Of a stretch of DNA of 64,000 bases, positions 1-4,868 are shown piece after piece. Below the pieces are notes generated by a model. It saw only the letters and a program-made list of their open reading frames with translations, was not told the origin of the DNA and did not search any database. Location of the stretch: positions 93,043 through 157,042 of the forward strand of contig JABIBU010000013.1 of assembly GCA_018652595.1 (NCBI GenBank), read 5' to 3'. The first letter of the stretch is position 1; every line of letters starts with the position of its first letter. The DNA is from Candidatus Magasanikiibacteriota bacterium. Lineage in GTDB: Bacteria; Patescibacteriota; Patescibacteriia; Magasanikbacterales; UBA922. The position numbers and the translations under genes were made by a program.

Positions 1-104
1 TCGACAAGTGCTTAAGTGTTTGCGCGCCCAAGTTATCCACAGCATACCAGCTGTTACCAAACAATTCTGAAATTTGTGTAGATTTGTGTTAAGATTCGTG
101 GGCA

Positions 105-133
105 TTGACAAATTCAAATTAACCTGCTATAAT
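105..133 (+). promoter_or_regulatory. Consensus sigma70 promoter TTGACA-N17-TATAAT upstream of rny, with a long leader
   Basis: TTGACA at 105-110 and TATAAT at 128-133 with a 17-nt spacer, read directly. rny starts 260 nt downstream, so either a long 5' UTR or a small leader ORF (235-342) lies between. Confidence 0.45.
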
Positions 134-393
134 GTATTTACACTTTAATCATTAAGGTGATGAAATCGATATTATTTTAGTAGAGAAGGAATACGAGAAA
201 AAACTGTTTTATCGAACAAGAAATATAAATAATTATGCTGAAATTAGCTAAATTATCACTTCTTCAAGAATACAATTACTCTCTTCAATCTGACTATTCA
301 GATTCTTTTGAGCTAGGCAAAAATTCTTTGCTTTTAGCTTAATTCTTCTCACAATATTAGTATCATTCTCATCACGTATGGGAAATTTTTTAT

Positions 394-1926
394 ATGCAAG
401 ACTTACTAATATTAGCAATTGCTGGTGGTGGCCTAGGTATCTTTGTGGGTATCCCTCTGGGTTATTTTTTGCGCAAGCAACTAGCCCAAGGTCAAGCCAA
501 TTCAGTAGAAGCTAAGGCCGAAAAGATGATGTCTGAGGCCAAAAACAAAGAGCAAGAGATCTTACTAAAATCCAAAGAAAAGGCCATCAAAATGATTGAT
601 GATGCCAAAAAAGAAGAGACAGACAGACGATCTGAGATGCAAAAAACTCAATCTAGACTCGAACAGCGTGAAAACATGTTTGACAAAAAGTTACTTGAGT
701 TTGAAGATCGCAAAACAAATCTACAAAAAAAAGTAGAAGAAATCCAAACAATCAAACAAAAGATTGATGTCGCAAAAGAAGAAGTTGGAAAAAAACTAGA
801 AGAAGTTTCTGGTTATTCCAAAGATCAAGCTGTGGATGAGCTCTTTCATCGTGTAGAAGAAGAAAGTAGCGAAGACTTGGCCATGCGCATCATGAAGATG
901 GAAAAGACAAACAGTGAAACTTACGAAGAAAAAGCCACGAGAATAGTTTTGGAATCTATCCAAAGATGTGCCACCGATCACTCTAGTGAGACAACTTCCT
1001 CATCTATTCCACTACCAAGTGAAGAGATGAAAGGTAGAATTATTGGAAAAGACGGTCGCAATATCAAGACTATTGAAAAGATGACTGGATGTGAGCTTAT
1101 TATTGATGAGACTCCAGAAATGCTTTTGATCTCTAGCTTCTCCCCTATTCGCAGACGAGTATGTTATCTAGCTTTGGAAAAACTGATCAAAGATGGTCGC
1201 ATACAACCAGCTAGAATTGAAGCATTTATAGAGGAGGCAAAAAAAGAAATAGCAATTGATATCAAAAAAACTGGCGAAGAAACTTTGTACAAACTTGGGT
1301 TCACAGGTATTGAGCCAAAATTAGTTTCCATTGCTGGGAGACTAAAATATCGTACTAGTTATGGTCAAAACATATTAAACCACTCTATCGAAGTCGCCCA
1401 ACTCTCTGGTTTAATCGCCGAAGAACTTGGAGCTGATGTAGCAAAAGCCAAAAAAGCTGGCTTCTTCCACGATATTGGAAAAGCTGTTGACCAAGAAACT
1501 CAAGGCTCTCATCCAGAAATTGGTGGTGTTATTTTGAAAAAATTTGGTTTGGATGAAGATCTCCAAGATGCTGCAATGAACCACCACGAAGATAAACCAG
1601 AAAAACTTATCACTCAGATTGTAAAAGCAGCCGATGCTATCTCTGGTGCCAGAGTCGGTGCTAGACGAGATACTTATGAGCAATATGTTGCTCGCTTGGA
1701 AGAACTAGAAGGAACTGCAAAACAATTTCCTGGTGTTGAAAAAGTTTATGCTATACAAGCTGGTCGTGAAGTTAGAGTATTTGTTAGCCCAGAAGAAATT
1801 GATGATTACAAAGCTTATAACTTAGCCAAAGATATTGCTCGTAAAATTGAAAATGAATTGCAATATCCTGGAGAGATCAAAGTCTGTGTAATTCGCGAAA
1901 GTCGTGTGATTGAATACGCAAAATAA
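394..1926 (+). CDS. rny: Ribonuclease Y (N-terminal TM anchor, coiled coil, KH domain, HD domain)
   Basis: N-terminal hydrophobic segment, a long K/E-rich coiled coil, the KH motif IIGKDGRNIKTIE, and the HD motif FHDIGKA...HHE. The length and domain order are typical of RNase Y. Confidence 0.9.
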   Translation: MQDLLILAIAGGGLGIFVGIPLGYFLRKQLAQGQANSVEAKAEKMMSEAKNKEQEILLKSKEKAIKMIDDAKKEETDRRSEMQKTQSRLEQRENMFDKKLLEFEDRKTNLQKKVEEIQTIKQKIDVAKEEVGKKLEEVSGYSKDQAVDELFHRVEEESSEDLAMRIMKMEKTNSETYEEKATRIVLESIQRCATDHSSETTSSSIPLPSEEMKGRIIGKDGRNIKTIEKMTGCELIIDETPEMLLISSFSPIRRRVCYLALEKLIKDGRIQPARIEAFIEEAKKEIAIDIKKTGEETLYKLGFTGIEPKLVSIAGRLKYRTSYGQNILNHSIEVAQLSGLIAEELGADVAKAKKAGFFHDIGKAVDQETQGSHPEIGGVILKKFGLDEDLQDAAMNHHEDKPEKLITQIVKAADAISGARVGARRDTYEQYVARLEELEGTAKQFPGVEKVYAIQAGREVRVFVSPEEIDDYKAYNLAKDIARKIENELQYPGEIKVCVIRESRVIEYAK

Positions 1927-1940
1927 ACATTTTGAGACTT

Positions 1941-1978
1941 AAAAAAACCCGCTAATACAGCGGGTTTTTGTTTTTTAT
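1941..1978. terminator. Bidirectional rho-independent terminator between the convergent rny and the GC-rich ORF
   Basis: aaaaaaaCCCGCTaatacAGCGGGtttttgtttttt: a 6-bp GC stem flanked by an A-run and a T-run. Confidence 0.6.
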
Positions 1979-2044
1979 AAAAACGAAAAAACTCGACGTC
2001 AGCATAAATGCAAAACGTCGAGCCCTTCCTCCCTCTACACCTCC

Positions 2045-2593
2045 TTACCTCTTCAAGAAACTATCAATCTCAAAGAAGTTCTCTACTAGAATATCGTGTG
2101 AATCCCCAAGAACAACGAAACATTCCACTCCATCAATATGTTGGATTGCCGTTATTGGCTCTCCATCACTGCTGGAGAGTGGAACAAGTCCTCGTAAAAT
2201 CCTCACTGCTTCTTCGGCACCGGAGAACCCCAGCACCTTCCATGGAACAGTCTCGTCGAGACTAATGATCCTCTTCTCTTGAGGATGGCTTGCCTGATCA
2301 ACTACGAAACTAAACAGACAGACCAACACATAAGGATTATCATACCCCAACTTTTCCAAAAGCGCCCTATAAGGCGGGCGTCTCCAGGTCCACTCTCTTC
2401 TCTTGTGCTGATTGAGCCTCCAGGTTACCTCACCAGCAGTCTCAAGTTTAAAGAGTGTGTTCTGAATCTCGTTTGGACTTGCTAGATTGTCCCAACCCCA
2501 ATCTGGATCATTGTGATCCACACACCTCTCGCCTTCTTCTCCCCATTGCTCAGCAAAGAGGAGGATGGATAAAACCAGCTCTCTGATTTCCAT
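2045..2593 (-). CDS. Hypothetical protein with atypically high GC. Start reassigned to the internal Met (MEIREL...) preceded by AGAGGAGA
   Basis: The ORF track gives 2045..2644. The second ATG has a strong SD (agaggagaagtcATG). The segment is much more GC-rich than its neighbours and throws off overlapping spurious plus-strand ORFs. I recognise no family. Confidence 0.4.
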   Translation of the reverse strand: MEIRELVLSILLFAEQWGEEGERCVDHNDPDWGWDNLASPNEIQNTLFKLETAGEVTWRLNQHKRREWTWRRPPYRALLEKLGYDNPYVLVCLFSFVVDQASHPQEKRIISLDETVPWKVLGFSGAEEAVRILRGLVPLSSSDGEPITAIQHIDGVECFVVLGDSHDILVENFFEIDSFLKR

Positions 2594-2756
2594 GACTTCT
2601 CCTCTAAATTGTGGGTTCTGTTTTTTCTCTCTTACATAGAACAAAAGGAGGGAACCCCCTTATTAATATATAGTAAAGCATATTTTAAAAAAAATTTCAA
2701 CCATTATTTTAAATTTTTATTAAGATATGTCTATCCACAGATATTTTTTCGCTCTG

Positions 2757-2785
2757 TTGACGGCTTTTTTAAAAAAAGCTATAAT
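2757..2785 (+). promoter_or_regulatory. Sigma70-type promoter TTGACG-N17-TATAAT for hup
   Basis: TTGACG at 2757-2762, a 17-nt spacer (gcttttttaaaaaaagc), and TATAAT at 2780-2785, about 75 nt upstream of the HU start. Confidence 0.5.
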
Positions 2786-2862
2786 AGCAATATAAATTAA
2801 ATTAACTTTTAACTCTTTCCGTACCCCGACTATGCTCGGGTTCGGAATTATAGGAGAATATT

Positions 2863-3141
2863 ATGAACAAAGCAGAACTAGCCGCTACAATTGCCGACAA
2901 GGTCGGCGTATCAAAAAAAGAAGGAGAGGGAATGGTAGCCGCTTTTGTAGAGACCGTTACCACCACACTAGTATCTGGTGGCGAAGTATCTATTGCTGGT
3001 TTTGGTGCCTTTAGCGCCAAACTAAGAGCCGGTAGAGTTGGTGTTAATCCACAAAACCCAACAGAAAAAATTCAAATCCCTCCAGTGACTGTACCGAAGT
3101 TTAAGGCTGGCAAAGGATTGAAAGATGCTTTGAAGAAATAA
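2863..3141 (+). CDS. hup: HU/IHF-family nucleoid DNA-binding protein
   Basis: The 92-aa product MNKAELA...GFGAF...RAGRVGVNPQNP...IPPVTVPKFKAGK matches the HU fold signature (arm with R-N-P). An RBS (aggagaa) precedes the ATG. Confidence 0.9.
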   Translation: MNKAELAATIADKVGVSKKEGEGMVAAFVETVTTTLVSGGEVSIAGFGAFSAKLRAGRVGVNPQNPTEKIQIPPVTVPKFKAGKGLKDALKK

Positions 3142-3180
3142 CACTGATTTAGACAGATTTTAAAAGATTACACAGATAAA

Positions 3181-3212
3181 AAACCACTCGCTAAATAGCG
3201 AGTGGTTTTTTG
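3181..3212. terminator. Bidirectional rho-independent terminator. It ends hup on the plus strand and the tRNA operon on the minus strand.
   Basis: aaaaCCACTCGCTaaatAGCGAGTGGtttttt. Confidence 0.6.
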
Positions 3213-3214
3213 TG

Positions 3215-3271
3215 TAAGGAGGGAGATTTGCCACCCTCGCGGGTGGTCAGCCTTGGGCTGAAACTCCCGAC
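3215..3271 (-). other. tRNA-Met 3'-half-like fragment (T-arm plus acceptor 3' strand) interrupted by a 30-nt GC-rich double hairpin
   Basis: taaGGAGGGAGATTTG[ccaccctcgcgggtggtcagccttgggctg]AACTCCCGAC matches the 3' end of the downstream tRNA-Met (tcaGGAGGGAGATTTGAACTCCCGACC), except for an insertion within the T-loop. No D or anticodon arm is present upstream. Confidence 0.4.
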
Positions 3272-3318
3272 TTGCTTTGTAAAAAAAATAAGTCCTGTGT
3301 TTTACAGAACTTATTTTG

Positions 3319-3392
3319 TGTCAGGAGGGAGATTTGAACTCCCGACCTTAGGGTTATGAATCCTACGCTCTCACCAACTGAGCTACCCTGAC
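3319..3392 (-). tRNA. tRNA-Met (anticodon CAT; initiator, elongator or Ile-lysidine type not resolved)
   Basis: Manual fold of the reverse complement: acceptor GTCAGGG, D-arm GCTCAGTTGGTGAGAGC, anticodon loop TTCATAA, T-arm GGGAGTTCAAATCTCCC, acceptor 3' TCCTGAC+A. Confidence 0.8.
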
Positions 3393-3429
3393 ATAGAAAA
3401 ATAAATTGTCTAGATGATCCCGACACTCG

Positions 3430-3501
3430 TAGCCCCAAGGGGAATCGAACCCCTGTTTTATGGATGAGAACCATATGTCCTAACCACTAGACGATGGGGC
3501 C
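3430..3501 (-). tRNA. tRNA-Glu (anticodon CTC)
   Basis: The reverse complement GGCCCCATCGTCTAGTGGTTAGGACATATGGTTCTCATCCATAAAACAGGGGTTCGATTCCCCTTGGGGCTA matches canonical tRNA-Glu architecture (GUCCCCU-UC-GUCUAG...). The anticodon loop is TTCTCAT. Confidence 0.75.
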
Positions 3502-3584
3502 AGAAGTCTCGGGACTATCCACTAGACGACCGGACCATTATACAGACAAAATTATACAGGAAATATAATTTTTTGTCAATATTT

Positions 3585-4868
3585 TTATCTTAGCAAAACA
3601 AAAGGTGCACTATATAGTTGTTTTATTGAAACAGGTTCACCCAATGGCAAAAAACCTCGCGGAGACGCTATTAATAATAGATAGTTCCAGACGAAAAAAA
3701 TAAAAATAATACCTAAATAAACTATAGCTTTAACTTTACTTTTATCTACTCTGTCAAACAAATAAGCAAAACCAAATGCAAATATAAACAATGAACCAAT
3801 CATCTTTCGAGCTCCAAAAGCTGAGCCACCCCACCAATCCAACAAACTTGCATTAAGATAAACCTGCACAAACAGCATTATAGACATTGCTGTAACTAAA
3901 AACTTATTTTTTCTAAAGGCCAGAATTAAACCCAACACACCTACCAATAAAAATGGATGCCAACTAAATAGACCATGATAACCAGAAAATAATACGGATA
4001 AAATTTTGGGTTGTAGAAACTGTATAAAACCAGATCCTTGCGGTACTAGAAAAAAAGAACCATATAAAAATTTCCACATTAAAAATTGTGGTAATAAAAT
4101 TAGCAAAACAACAAGAGGAGAGATAAATACCTTACTAGTTATTATTTTTCTTTCTTGTATTTTTTTGAGATAAATTATAGCAGGGAATAGTACAAAAATA
4201 ATATTTTGCCACCTCACTAAGACTGTCAAACCAATGGAAAGACCTAGAAATATTAGTGTTTTGCTGTCTATTTTTTCTTTTTTTAAAAAAACTACAGAAT
4301 ACCAAAAAAGTAAACAGCATGCAAAAAAAGACAGACCATGTGACATCATCGGTTCGTATATAACATAGTGCAAAAGGGGCGAACAAAAAATAACCACTAT
4401 CACCGACAACCAACTAGACAGGCTAGAAAAAAAACTTTGCAGGGCCTTGAATAAAAAGACAGCCCCCAGCAATACATAGAAAATAGAACCAAAACTTAAA
4501 AATAGCTGGTAATAAATACTAAAACCAAGTAAACCAAATTGGGCAAAACCTGAAAAGAAATCTAGTAAAATAGCCGGAATAAAAAATGGGGACAGTAGTA
4601 TGCTCATACCGATAGCAAAAGGATTTCCATGCTTACCAATCGATGTAGTTGCTTGATTGCTTAAATCTGTTCCATAAATACCATCATAACGAATGTATTC
4701 GTTAGTAAAATCAAAATCCCCGTCAAAAGCTAGGGACCTTAGATACATATAATAACCATGGCCATCCCCCGCTATATCCCATTTTGGATTTAAAATAAAA
4801 ATTGAAATTGAAAAAACTAATACTAAAAATAATACTAGAGATAATGAAGAAAATAATTTAAATTTCAT
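3585..4868 (-). CDS. Polytopic integral membrane protein, possibly a GT-C-type glycosyltransferase or mannosyltransferase-like
   Basis: 427 aa with at least 10 hydrophobic helices and an N-terminal periplasmic-loop motif (DGHGYYMY...DGDFDF). No soluble catalytic domain is visible, so function is inferred only from topology. Confidence 0.4.
   Translation of the reverse strand: MKFKLFSSLSLVLFLVLVFSISIFILNPKWDIAGDGHGYYMYLRSLAFDGDFDFTNEYIRYDGIYGTDLSNQATTSIGKHGNPFAIGMSILLSPFFIPAILLDFFSGFAQFGLLGFSIYYQLFLSFGSIFYVLLGAVFLFKALQSFFSSLSSWLSVIVVIFCSPLLHYVIYEPMMSHGLSFFACCLLFWYSVVFLKKEKIDSKTLIFLGLSIGLTVLVRWQNIIFVLFPAIIYLKKIQERKIITSKVFISPLVVLLILLPQFLMWKFLYGSFFLVPQGSGFIQFLQPKILSVLFSGYHGLFSWHPFLLVGVLGLILAFRKNKFLVTAMSIMLFVQVYLNASLLDWWGGSAFGARKMIGSLFIFAFGFAYLFDRVDKSKVKAIVYLGIIFIFFVWNYLLLIASPRGFLPLGEPVSIKQLYSAPFVLLR

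Follow-up and report, generated by a model that had tools for sequence, protein, structure and literature searches.

How pieces of tRNA genes come to lie around two intact tRNA genes, and why one of these pieces is split by a GC-rich double hairpin, are the questions raised by a 64-kb stretch of DNA (35% GC) from a bacterium of Candidatus Magasanikbacteria, which belongs to the candidate phyla radiation (CPR). The whole stretch, at its full length, is called the window here. It contains only two tRNA genes, tRNA-Met(CAT) and tRNA-Glu(CTC), both on the minus strand and both called by ARAGORN and Rfam alike. A preliminary description of the window had read the pieces as attL/attR scars of an integrase or, alternatively, as a tRNA-derived small RNA. 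From comparison of sequences and by analogy with known nuclease systems, we consider it likely that they are the debris of a small selfish cassette that invades tRNA genes and is made up of a miniature GIY-YIG nuclease gene and a 30-nt GC-rich double hairpin.

Results

A split copy of tRNA-Met

The intact tRNA-Met gene occupies positions 3318/3319-3392 (ARAGORN; Rfam RF00005, 67.6 bits) and tRNA-Glu positions 3429/3430-3501 (ARAGORN; RF00005, 65.5 bits). On the 3' side of tRNA-Met, 47 bp away and on the same strand, lies a partial second copy of that gene, in which GTCGGGAGTT and CAAATCTCCCTCCTtACA, separated by 31 nt, correspond to tRNA-Met positions ~46-73 with one mismatch. The 31-nt insert splits the copy between T55 and C56. 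The score of the gapped local alignment of this split copy to tRNA-Met was reached by none of 2000 shuffles. The 5' side of the split T arm, GTCGGGAGTT (tRNA-Met positions 46-55), was placed by alignment at 3262..3271 of the minus strand. Its 3' side continues through the 3' strand of the acceptor into the native trailer (CAAATCTCCCTCCTtACA + CAAAAAA; 3206..3230, minus strand); with the trailer included this part reads CAAATCTCCCTCCTtACAcaaaaaa, and its likeness to tRNA-Met extends into the trailer (ACAcaaaa). The segment 3206-3230 is the stranded 3' end of an old tRNA-Met gene. ARAGORN, Rfam and the alignments scored against shuffles thus bear out the preliminary description in that the tRNA-Glu/tRNA-Met pair is accompanied by partial tRNA duplicates.

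The insert, termed the double-hairpin element (DHE; 3231..3261), was delimited by folding, alignment and a scan of the whole window. Read in the sense of the tRNA, it consists of TCAGCC-CAA-GGCTGA followed by CCACCC-GCGA-GGGTGG, and its second hairpin has a GNRA loop on the tRNA-sense strand. The fold confirmed what had been described as a GC-rich double hairpin with one GNRA loop in the 3'-half copy of tRNA-Met, the insert being 31 nt long and located at T55/C56. The DHE is 71% GC in a genome of 35% GC, and its 40-nt core folds at -20.1 kcal/mol (z = -3.75). It is the sole double hairpin of its kind detected in the 64 kb, and neither a second copy of its 30-mer nor a third copy of the tRNA-Met 3' end was found in the window. 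The recommended tRNA and RNA-family scans gave the two intact tRNAs and nothing else of substance: Rfam, run over 3100-3650 at the gathering threshold and at E up to 10, returned the two tRNAs and chance-level matches only, with no known RNA family in that interval, and neither fragment was called as a tRNA by ARAGORN or RF00005 (no complete cloverleaf).

Two terminators flank the split copy, which lacks a promoter of its own. The 47-bp spacer that separates it from tRNA-Met is one of them, a terminator-like hairpin followed by T8 immediately 3' of tRNA-Met (3281..3314, minus strand; 141-nt fold), which is part of the inserted segment and not of the older gene. The other, recognized by sequence reading and folding at 3178..3211, is bidirectional: it belongs both to hup, on the plus strand, and to the original tRNA operon, on the minus strand. 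Enclosed in this way, the scar is expected to be inert.

The tRNA-Met site in related genomes

The comparison suggested by the preliminary description was made with L095 (GCA_900089805.1) and with L096/L100, also from related Magasanikbacteria, and an element was found at exactly this site in L095 and L096. L095 is the closest relative; its homologue of the membrane-protein gene at window positions 3585-4868 is 77% identical and the gene order is the same. In L095, tRNA-Met is followed after 2 nt by the ATG of a 103-aa stand-alone GIY-YIG open reading frame (ORF), in which the match to Pfam PF01541 (E = 7e-14) covers residues 7-77 of 103. The 3' end of this ORF crosses CTCAGTT, the double hairpin CCAGCCagaGGCTGG-t-CAGCCtttGGCTG and a second copy of tRNA-Met. 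This second copy is exact and 58 nt long, running from position 18 to just beyond the 3' end, and the old trailer, the terminator and hup come after it, with CAAAAAAA and the hup-side terminator following the last tRNA-Met copy.

The same unit of tRNA-Met, 2 nt, GIY-YIG ORF, double hairpin and partial tRNA-Met copy is present in L096/L100. It is followed there by a terminator and then by GTCGGGAGTT, TCCGCCaaaGGCGGA TCAGCCtatGGCTGA and the rest of the T arm and acceptor, with T55 split as in the window; the 10-mer before this T-loop double hairpin is the one that precedes the DHE. Ahead of the T55-split copy, L096/L100 and the window alike have CAAAA, a hairpin terminator and a short spacer, and the order of CAAAA, hairpin and T-run 3' of tRNA-Met copy 2 in L096 matches the layout at 3281-3314. 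The enclosing T stem has decayed in L096 (4 nt lost) and the double hairpin has been kept.

The GIY-YIG ORF therefore shows presence/absence polymorphism next to a conserved tRNA-Met, being absent from the window and present in L095 and L096. The site occurs in three states: scar only in the window, ORF only in L095, and both in L096. The window resembles L096 minus the ORF and copy 2, and L095 resembles L096 minus the T-loop copy. Judging from these arrangements, the states of the window and L095 could have arisen from an L096-like ancestor through recombination between direct tRNA-Met repeats.

The intergenic region is identical in 13 more contigs of the same species and differs by one base in 2 others (one record fetched twice), and GCA_018657365.1, like other contigs of the species, is identical to the window in its proteins and in the 1 kb surrounding the fragments. 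Because the region is near-identical in these contigs, the tRNA fragments are not an assembly artefact; being identical or one base different, the contigs are uninformative for comparison. At a greater distance, where synteny was followed with the 427-aa membrane protein in species-representative genomes, the tRNA context is not conserved at ~50% identity: L016 has tRNA-Glu only, and L017 has an inverted tRNA-Met.

Two further differences were noted between L096:3361-4600 and window:2863-4868. Measured against hup and the PBP2 gene, the tRNA-Glu/tRNA-Met block of L096 has the opposite orientation, and L096 lacks the gene for the 427-aa membrane protein found in the window. With this inversion and the missing gene, the tRNA block is a rearrangement hotspot among related genomes.

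Remnants around tRNA-Glu

Upstream of tRNA-Glu, the minus strand at 3515..3536 carries GGTCCGGTCGTCTAGTGGATAG, which resembles the acceptor 5' strand and D arm of that tRNA. It matches tRNA-Glu positions 1-22 at 18 of 22 positions, a score reached by 1 of 2000 shuffles. Aligned with L095, it falls where the 5' half of an outer, interrupted tRNA-Glu stands in that genome. The piece reported earlier as a duplicate of the tRNA-Glu 5' end is hence of tRNA-Glu type but has diverged too far to be an exact duplicate, and it appears to be a remnant of an older tRNA-Glu gene.

The present tRNA-Glu is enclosed by a helix. Its leader half, TCCCGAGAC (3506..3514, minus strand), pairs with 3419-3427, and its trailer half, composed of GTGTCGGGA, TCAT and CTAGAC, was placed by alignment and folding at 3408..3427 of the minus strand. 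An outer pair, GTCTAG at 3522-3527 with CTAGAC at 3408-3413, lengthens the helix, and the minimum free energy fold of 3393-3545 (minus strand) sets the tRNA-Glu cloverleaf on top of the leader/trailer helix. In L095, the sequence to which the trailer TCATC aligns is the beginning of the 3' half of the interrupted outer tRNA-Glu.

That outer tRNA-Glu is near-identical to the one in the window and is interrupted between C34 and U35 by a 105-nt insert, which is a second, different tRNA-Glu(CTC) between the strands CCCGCCTGC and GGCGGGCAGG. The GC helix that these strands form around the inner tRNA-Glu is the counterpart of the enclosing helix in the window. The tRNA-Glu site is thus clean in L096, nested in L095 and marked by a 5' remnant and an enclosing helix in the window. 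On our reading of these sequences, the 5' piece and the leader/trailer helix would be what is left of an older tRNA-Glu after the present one overwrote it, and the tRNA-Glu/tRNA-Met operon has probably been invaded more than once.

The tRNA-within-tRNA of L095 (L095:7284-7455) has a predicted fold in which one cloverleaf is mounted on the anticodon arm of the outer cloverleaf, the GC helix being 10 bp long. Both strands of this helix recur, inverted, as a hairpin near hup (L095:8062-8092). A split or permuted tRNA assembled from the two window fragments was considered as well and rejected; their acceptor strands, GGTCCGG and TCCTTAC, are not complementary.

GIY-YIG genes, double hairpins and tRNA fragments in metagenomic loci

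Eighty metagenomic loci (296 kb) were gathered by GIY-YIG homology alone, using an alignment of five close proteins. A tRNA gene on the same strand occurs within ~140 nt of the ORF in 69 of the 80 loci and usually abuts it, and the linked tRNAs include those for Val, Cys, Lys, Pro, His, Asp, Ile, Ala, Arg, Thr, Leu and Met. Double hairpins, detected as two adjacent perfect GC-rich hairpins, number 72 in the 296 kb and are found in 58/80 loci. Shuffled sequences yield 0-1, 134 kb of CPR control loci contain a single one, and so does the 64-kb window. All but six of the 72 (66/72) are <=200 nt from the ORF, often at a fixed 9-38 nt before the ATG, and four loci have double hairpins on both sides (L119, L146 and L155 among them). 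GIY-YIG genes, double hairpins and tRNA fragments are thus associated across the family.

For 54/72 double hairpins, the insertion site could be mapped to the adjacent tRNA: 21 lie in the D loop (after position 16-18), 9 in the D stem, 3 after position 8, 17 in the anticodon loop and 4 in the T loop. An intron-like insertion in a functional tRNA was ruled out, since removal of the hairpins in silico and rescanning restored a complete tRNA in 0/73 cases; the double hairpin therefore marks a defective copy. The commonest layout, seen in 32 loci, is a 5' tRNA fragment, the double hairpin, a few tRNA bases, the ORF from its ATG onwards and an intact tRNA, and the stop codon often falls within the first bases of the downstream tRNA. 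The mirror layout, as at tRNA-Met, is intact tRNA, ORF, double hairpin and 3' part.

The consensus of 44 unique 30-nt elements beside GIY-YIG genes is TCnnCC-ArA-GGnnGA TCnnCC-TyT-GGnnGA. It is dyad-symmetric, reading identically on either strand; its stem positions are variable yet complementary, and loop sequences vary. The DHE of the window fits the family pattern of TCnnCC-nnn-GGnnGA twice over, with a canonical first hairpin and a 4-nt loop in the second. Nuclease clade, hairpin type and target loop co-vary: clade-C proteins occur with TCTSSC-type hairpins in 13/13 cases, mostly in the anticodon loop of tRNA-Cys, and clade-A proteins with TCNNCC-type hairpins in 34/38, mostly in the D arm.

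The surveyed proteins are 76-133 aa long and consist essentially of the catalytic domain only, their C-terminal tails being read-through into hairpin or tRNA sequence. The nearest solved structures by sequence are the UPF0213 proteins 1YWL and 1ZG2. A profile search returned 4015 cluster representatives at E <= 0.001, mostly of 80-130 aa, and hardly any of the matching clusters carry names on look-up. No relatives of the nuclease were found in viral contigs.

Several of the loci have unusual arrangements. One double hairpin is nested within the loop of another at L105:2753-2813, leader, 5' tRNA-Val fragment and double hairpin together form a 76-nt tandem repeat at L101:2040-2195, and pieces of at least 3 different tRNA-Cys alleles surround one ORF at L155:980-1480; to judge by their sequences, these arrangements suggest that invasion took place in repeated rounds. 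Double hairpins of a second type, with 7-bp stems, 4-nt loops and GTCAT (e.g. TGGGGTCATTCGACCCCA CGCCCAGTCGAATGACTGGG), are present at L137:838-875 and L159:2423-2460, located in the T loop of a tRNA-Tyr copy. At L101:2540-2613, the ARAGORN call of a 'tRNA-Val' is a miscall that takes part of a double hairpin as the acceptor stem.

Promoter and neighbouring genes

A sigma-70 promoter of the tRNA operon, TTGACA-17-TATAAT with a 12/12 match, is located at 3551..3579 on the minus strand and also at the equivalent place in the L095 alignment. From its position, the transcript is predicted to start a few bases 5' of the tRNA-Glu-like fragment at 3515-3536. A Pfam scan of the 8 ORFs within ~5 kb identified RNase Y, HU, PBP2, a T2SSE ATPase, YtxH and DsbA; two ORFs had no match. 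The ORF at 2045-2593 (minus strand), which had been thought foreign for its high GC content, encodes a conserved hypothetical protein of 182 aa without a Pfam match; its GC content is 46%, that of the window 35%. The ORF in the syntenic place of L095 is 76% identical to it, close to the 77% of the membrane-protein gene, and the window ORF is therefore resident and not cargo. The GC skew of window positions 1-3500 changes sign near 2 kb, and the genes converge, RNase Y and hup being on the plus strand and all genes from 3585 on being on the minus strand. The change near 2 kb could mark a replication terminus or a mere strand switch, with just 2 kb of the window lying to its left.

Discussion

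A probable selfish cassette at tRNA genes

Our reading of the window as cassette debris draws on the anatomy of the locus, on the variable presence of the element among related genomes and on the joint occurrence, throughout the family, of GIY-YIG genes with double hairpins and pieces of tRNA. A wider proposal is offered tentatively, at a little under even chances. CPR bacteria may harbour widespread selfish cassettes, each pairing a hairpin-directed, catalytic-domain-only GIY-YIG nuclease with its cognate double hairpin, which would insert in tRNA genes, mostly in the D, anticodon and T loops, and overwrite them with a carried or regenerated copy. Nests, layered graveyards of fragments and transfer of tRNA alleles between lineages would result, and the window would represent a nuclease-less end state.

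The full cassette would comprise a GIY-YIG gene of ~80-105 aa, one or two 30-nt double hairpins and an unbroken copy of the target tRNA, which might be imported or regenerated and would keep the cell supplied with that tRNA. It would lodge inside the target tRNA gene, mostly in the D, anticodon or T loop. Guided by hairpin structure, the nuclease would cut at the double hairpin cognate to it and perhaps also at those arms of tRNA genes that form hairpins; by analogy with the systems compared below, it may recognize the hairpin, as Ssn nucleases do, or conserved tRNA loops, in the manner of SegB. Such breaks would be repaired by copying of the cassette together with the intact tRNA, and the broken resident gene would be left as a fragment, a functionless scar with the double hairpin at the break. 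In the window, the old tRNA-Met would have been broken between T55 and C56, with 3206-3230, 3231-3261 and 3262-3271 remaining between the new and the old terminator. The nuclease gene may have been lost by recombination between direct tRNA-Met repeats such as those of the relatives, or else the T-loop insert may always have been without an ORF. The dyad symmetry of the hairpins and the decay of the tRNA stems around them argue that the hairpin acts as DNA rather than RNA.

Several points weigh against this explanation. A tblastn search of the window with the nucleases gave nothing significant, and the link to a GIY-YIG gene accordingly comes from the relatives. The DHE differs from the T-loop double hairpin of L096 in sequence and in the order of its hairpins; because the hairpin sequences of the window and its relatives differ, the two may be independent insertions instead of products of common descent. 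The detector demanded perfect pairing, so that the covariation of the stems is partly built into the sample; in a small sample defined by flanks, and hence independent of pairing, both hairpins were intact in 10/11 unique inserts of 30-33 nt. A catalytic domain of 80-105 aa has no evident DNA-binding domain, which makes classical sequence-specific homing doubtful, and if the tRNA itself were the recognition site, the intact tRNA in a filled locus would still be a target. The double hairpin also does not match the published pattern of the Ssn-related motif (SRM).

Other explanations

Under the integrase explanation, a tyrosine integrase would have inserted an element at the 3' end of tRNA-Met and the 5' end of tRNA-Glu, and the element would later have been lost. 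A direct repeat of the 3' portion of a tRNA with a few trailer bases, such as tRNA-Met 46-73, is what integration at tRNA genes is expected to leave, and integrase subfamilies favour anticodon-loop, T-loop or 3'-end sublocations of tRNA genes. However, just 47 bp separate the repeats, one of which is interrupted by 31 nt, and they bracket no kb-sized element, and site-specific excision would leave one copy, not two. The Pfam scan found no integrase among the 8 flanking ORFs, and the intervening DNA in relatives is a 0.3-kb GIY-YIG ORF alone, not an integrative island. Nor could att recombination produce the nest of 5' half, whole tRNA and 3' half in L095, and the double hairpin at the junction has a conserved form that recurs at many different tRNAs beside GIY-YIG genes. 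The proposal of attL/attR scars thus holds in so far as mobile DNA at tRNA genes is concerned, with an element at the same site in relatives, and an integrase as its agent is highly improbable. The other suggestion made earlier, that the split T arm and double hairpin form a functional structured RNA, be it a small RNA of tRNA origin or an operon element for 3' stabilisation or processing, is consistent with the stability of the predicted three-way junction (-27.4 kcal/mol, z = -3.4; the plus strand is lower still, -34.5), with the GNRA loop in the tRNA sense and with a G-to-T change in the acceptor strand that lengthens the outer helix. Set against these are the failure to match any Rfam family even at E = 10, the position of the split copy 3' of a strong hairpin and T8 with no promoter of its own, and the state of L096, where the T stem has lost 4 nt and the double hairpin is intact. 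The dyad-symmetric consensus of the family, with its varying loop sequences, points to DNA and not RNA, and we regard a functional RNA as quite unlikely.

The double hairpin might also be an autonomous miniature mobile element, comparable to the GC clusters or double-hairpin elements of mitochondria, that enters the loops of any DNA hairpin, tRNA arms among them, its link with GIY-YIG genes coming only from shared accumulation in dead tRNA fragments. The double hairpin within the loop of another in L105, the insertions in three different tRNA loops and the D stem, and the DHE of the window, with no nuclease gene nearby, would all suit such an element. Its rarity away from GIY-YIG genes (one in 134 kb of CPR controls and one in the window), the 66/72 within 200 nt of an ORF, often 9-38 nt before the ATG, and the co-variation of hairpin type with nuclease clade argue the other way, and we think this explanation unlikely.

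Implications

The window holds the relic alone, and the interest lies in the system behind it. If the cassette explanation is correct, the tRNA genes of CPR bacteria are not passive integration sites but undergo turnover driven by a dedicated mini-cassette. This would account for the stray pieces of tRNA, the unusual leaders and the GC-rich hairpins of AT-rich CPR genomes. The system would join the Ssn hairpin-guided single-strand nucleases, the homing enzymes that read tRNA loops and the double-hairpin elements of mitochondria, and the family would offer many natural pairs of nuclease and hairpin of differing specificity. For annotation, pseudo-tRNA pieces and tRNA-in-tRNA nests are to be expected that confuse tRNA finders, as in the ARAGORN miscall in L101.

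Comparison with known systems

We found no description in the literature of GIY-YIG genes and double hairpins within tRNA gene fragments, in CPR or other bacteria, although many subscription papers lay outside the search and this is absence of evidence only. Where integrase att sites are concerned, the direct repeats of a tRNA 3' portion and the anticodon-loop and T-loop sublocations are alike; the nested arrangements, the hairpin at the junction, the 47-bp distance between repeats and the lack of an integrase or island are not.

Mitochondrial double-hairpin elements and GC clusters are described, in the portions of the sources used here, as short, GC-rich and potentially mobile pairs of adjacent hairpins in AT-rich genomes, found also inside RNA genes (Paquin, Laforest & Lang 2000; PMC10085805). 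Two adjacent GC-rich hairpins in an AT-rich genome are common to both, a likeness of form. The mitochondrial elements, according to the same portions, belong to fungi and occur in tens of dispersed, mostly intergenic copies, whereas 54/72 of those studied here map to an adjacent tRNA fragment; those portions of PMC10085805 describe neither targeting of tRNA loops nor linkage to GIY-YIG genes. With respect to mobile endonuclease genes, the CPR double hairpins lie beside GIY-YIG ORFs. In Allomyces, one double-hairpin element reportedly borders a mobile endonuclease ORF, and this ORF brings with it a second copy of the 3' end of atp6.

SegB of phage T4 is a free-standing GIY-YIG homing endonuclease encoded in the phage tRNA gene cluster; it spreads together with neighbouring tRNA genes and replaces the tRNA region of the recipient (PMC2330249). 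Here too a GIY-YIG gene stands among tRNA genes, the break in the window is in the T loop, and an ORF is present or absent at the same site beside a conserved target gene (window versus L095/L096). SegB is a longer, multi-domain phage protein. The proteins studied here, unlike SegB, have the catalytic domain only, without a separate DNA-binding domain, are chromosomal in CPR and were not found in viral contigs. Neither a double hairpin nor partial tRNA copies are described for SegB in the abstract of PMC2330249.

Ssn nucleases are single-domain GIY-YIG proteins encoded between their own hairpin repeats (SRM/NTS); once bound to the hairpin of a single-stranded DNA, they cleave immediately upstream (Chenal et al. 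2025, PMC11893778). The cassettes resemble them in having, in the relatives only and not in the window, a small single-domain GIY-YIG gene of ~100 aa flanked by its own GC-rich hairpin repeats in an insertion-sequence-like order of repeat, gene and repeat. The NTS core TCCCGC-GMAV-GCGGGA compares with TCCCGC-AAA-GCGGGA in some of the double hairpins. In contrast to Ssn, the repeat here consists of two tandem 15-nt hairpins with dyad symmetry and is located within fragments of tRNA genes, the nuclease gene is usually immediately next to a tRNA, the copy number is low (1 per 64 kb versus hundreds), and partial duplication of a tRNA is part of the unit. The SRM pattern HGTCWY..YYVSBRH..WNVSBRG..RNCYNB is matched by no double hairpin and only twice in the 296 kb, equal to shuffles. 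Both matches closely resemble the NTS of Neisseria, being near-perfect NTS-like inverted pairs (TGTCATTCCCGCGCAGGCGGGAATCCAT and similar; L165:2238-2310 and L170:1464-1530), located 200-260 nt upstream of tRNA-Cys-linked GIY-YIG genes on contigs of CPR type. On balance, the finding is classed as a variant of two known themes, the Ssn-type cassettes of nuclease and hairpin and the free-standing homing genes that duplicate part of their target.

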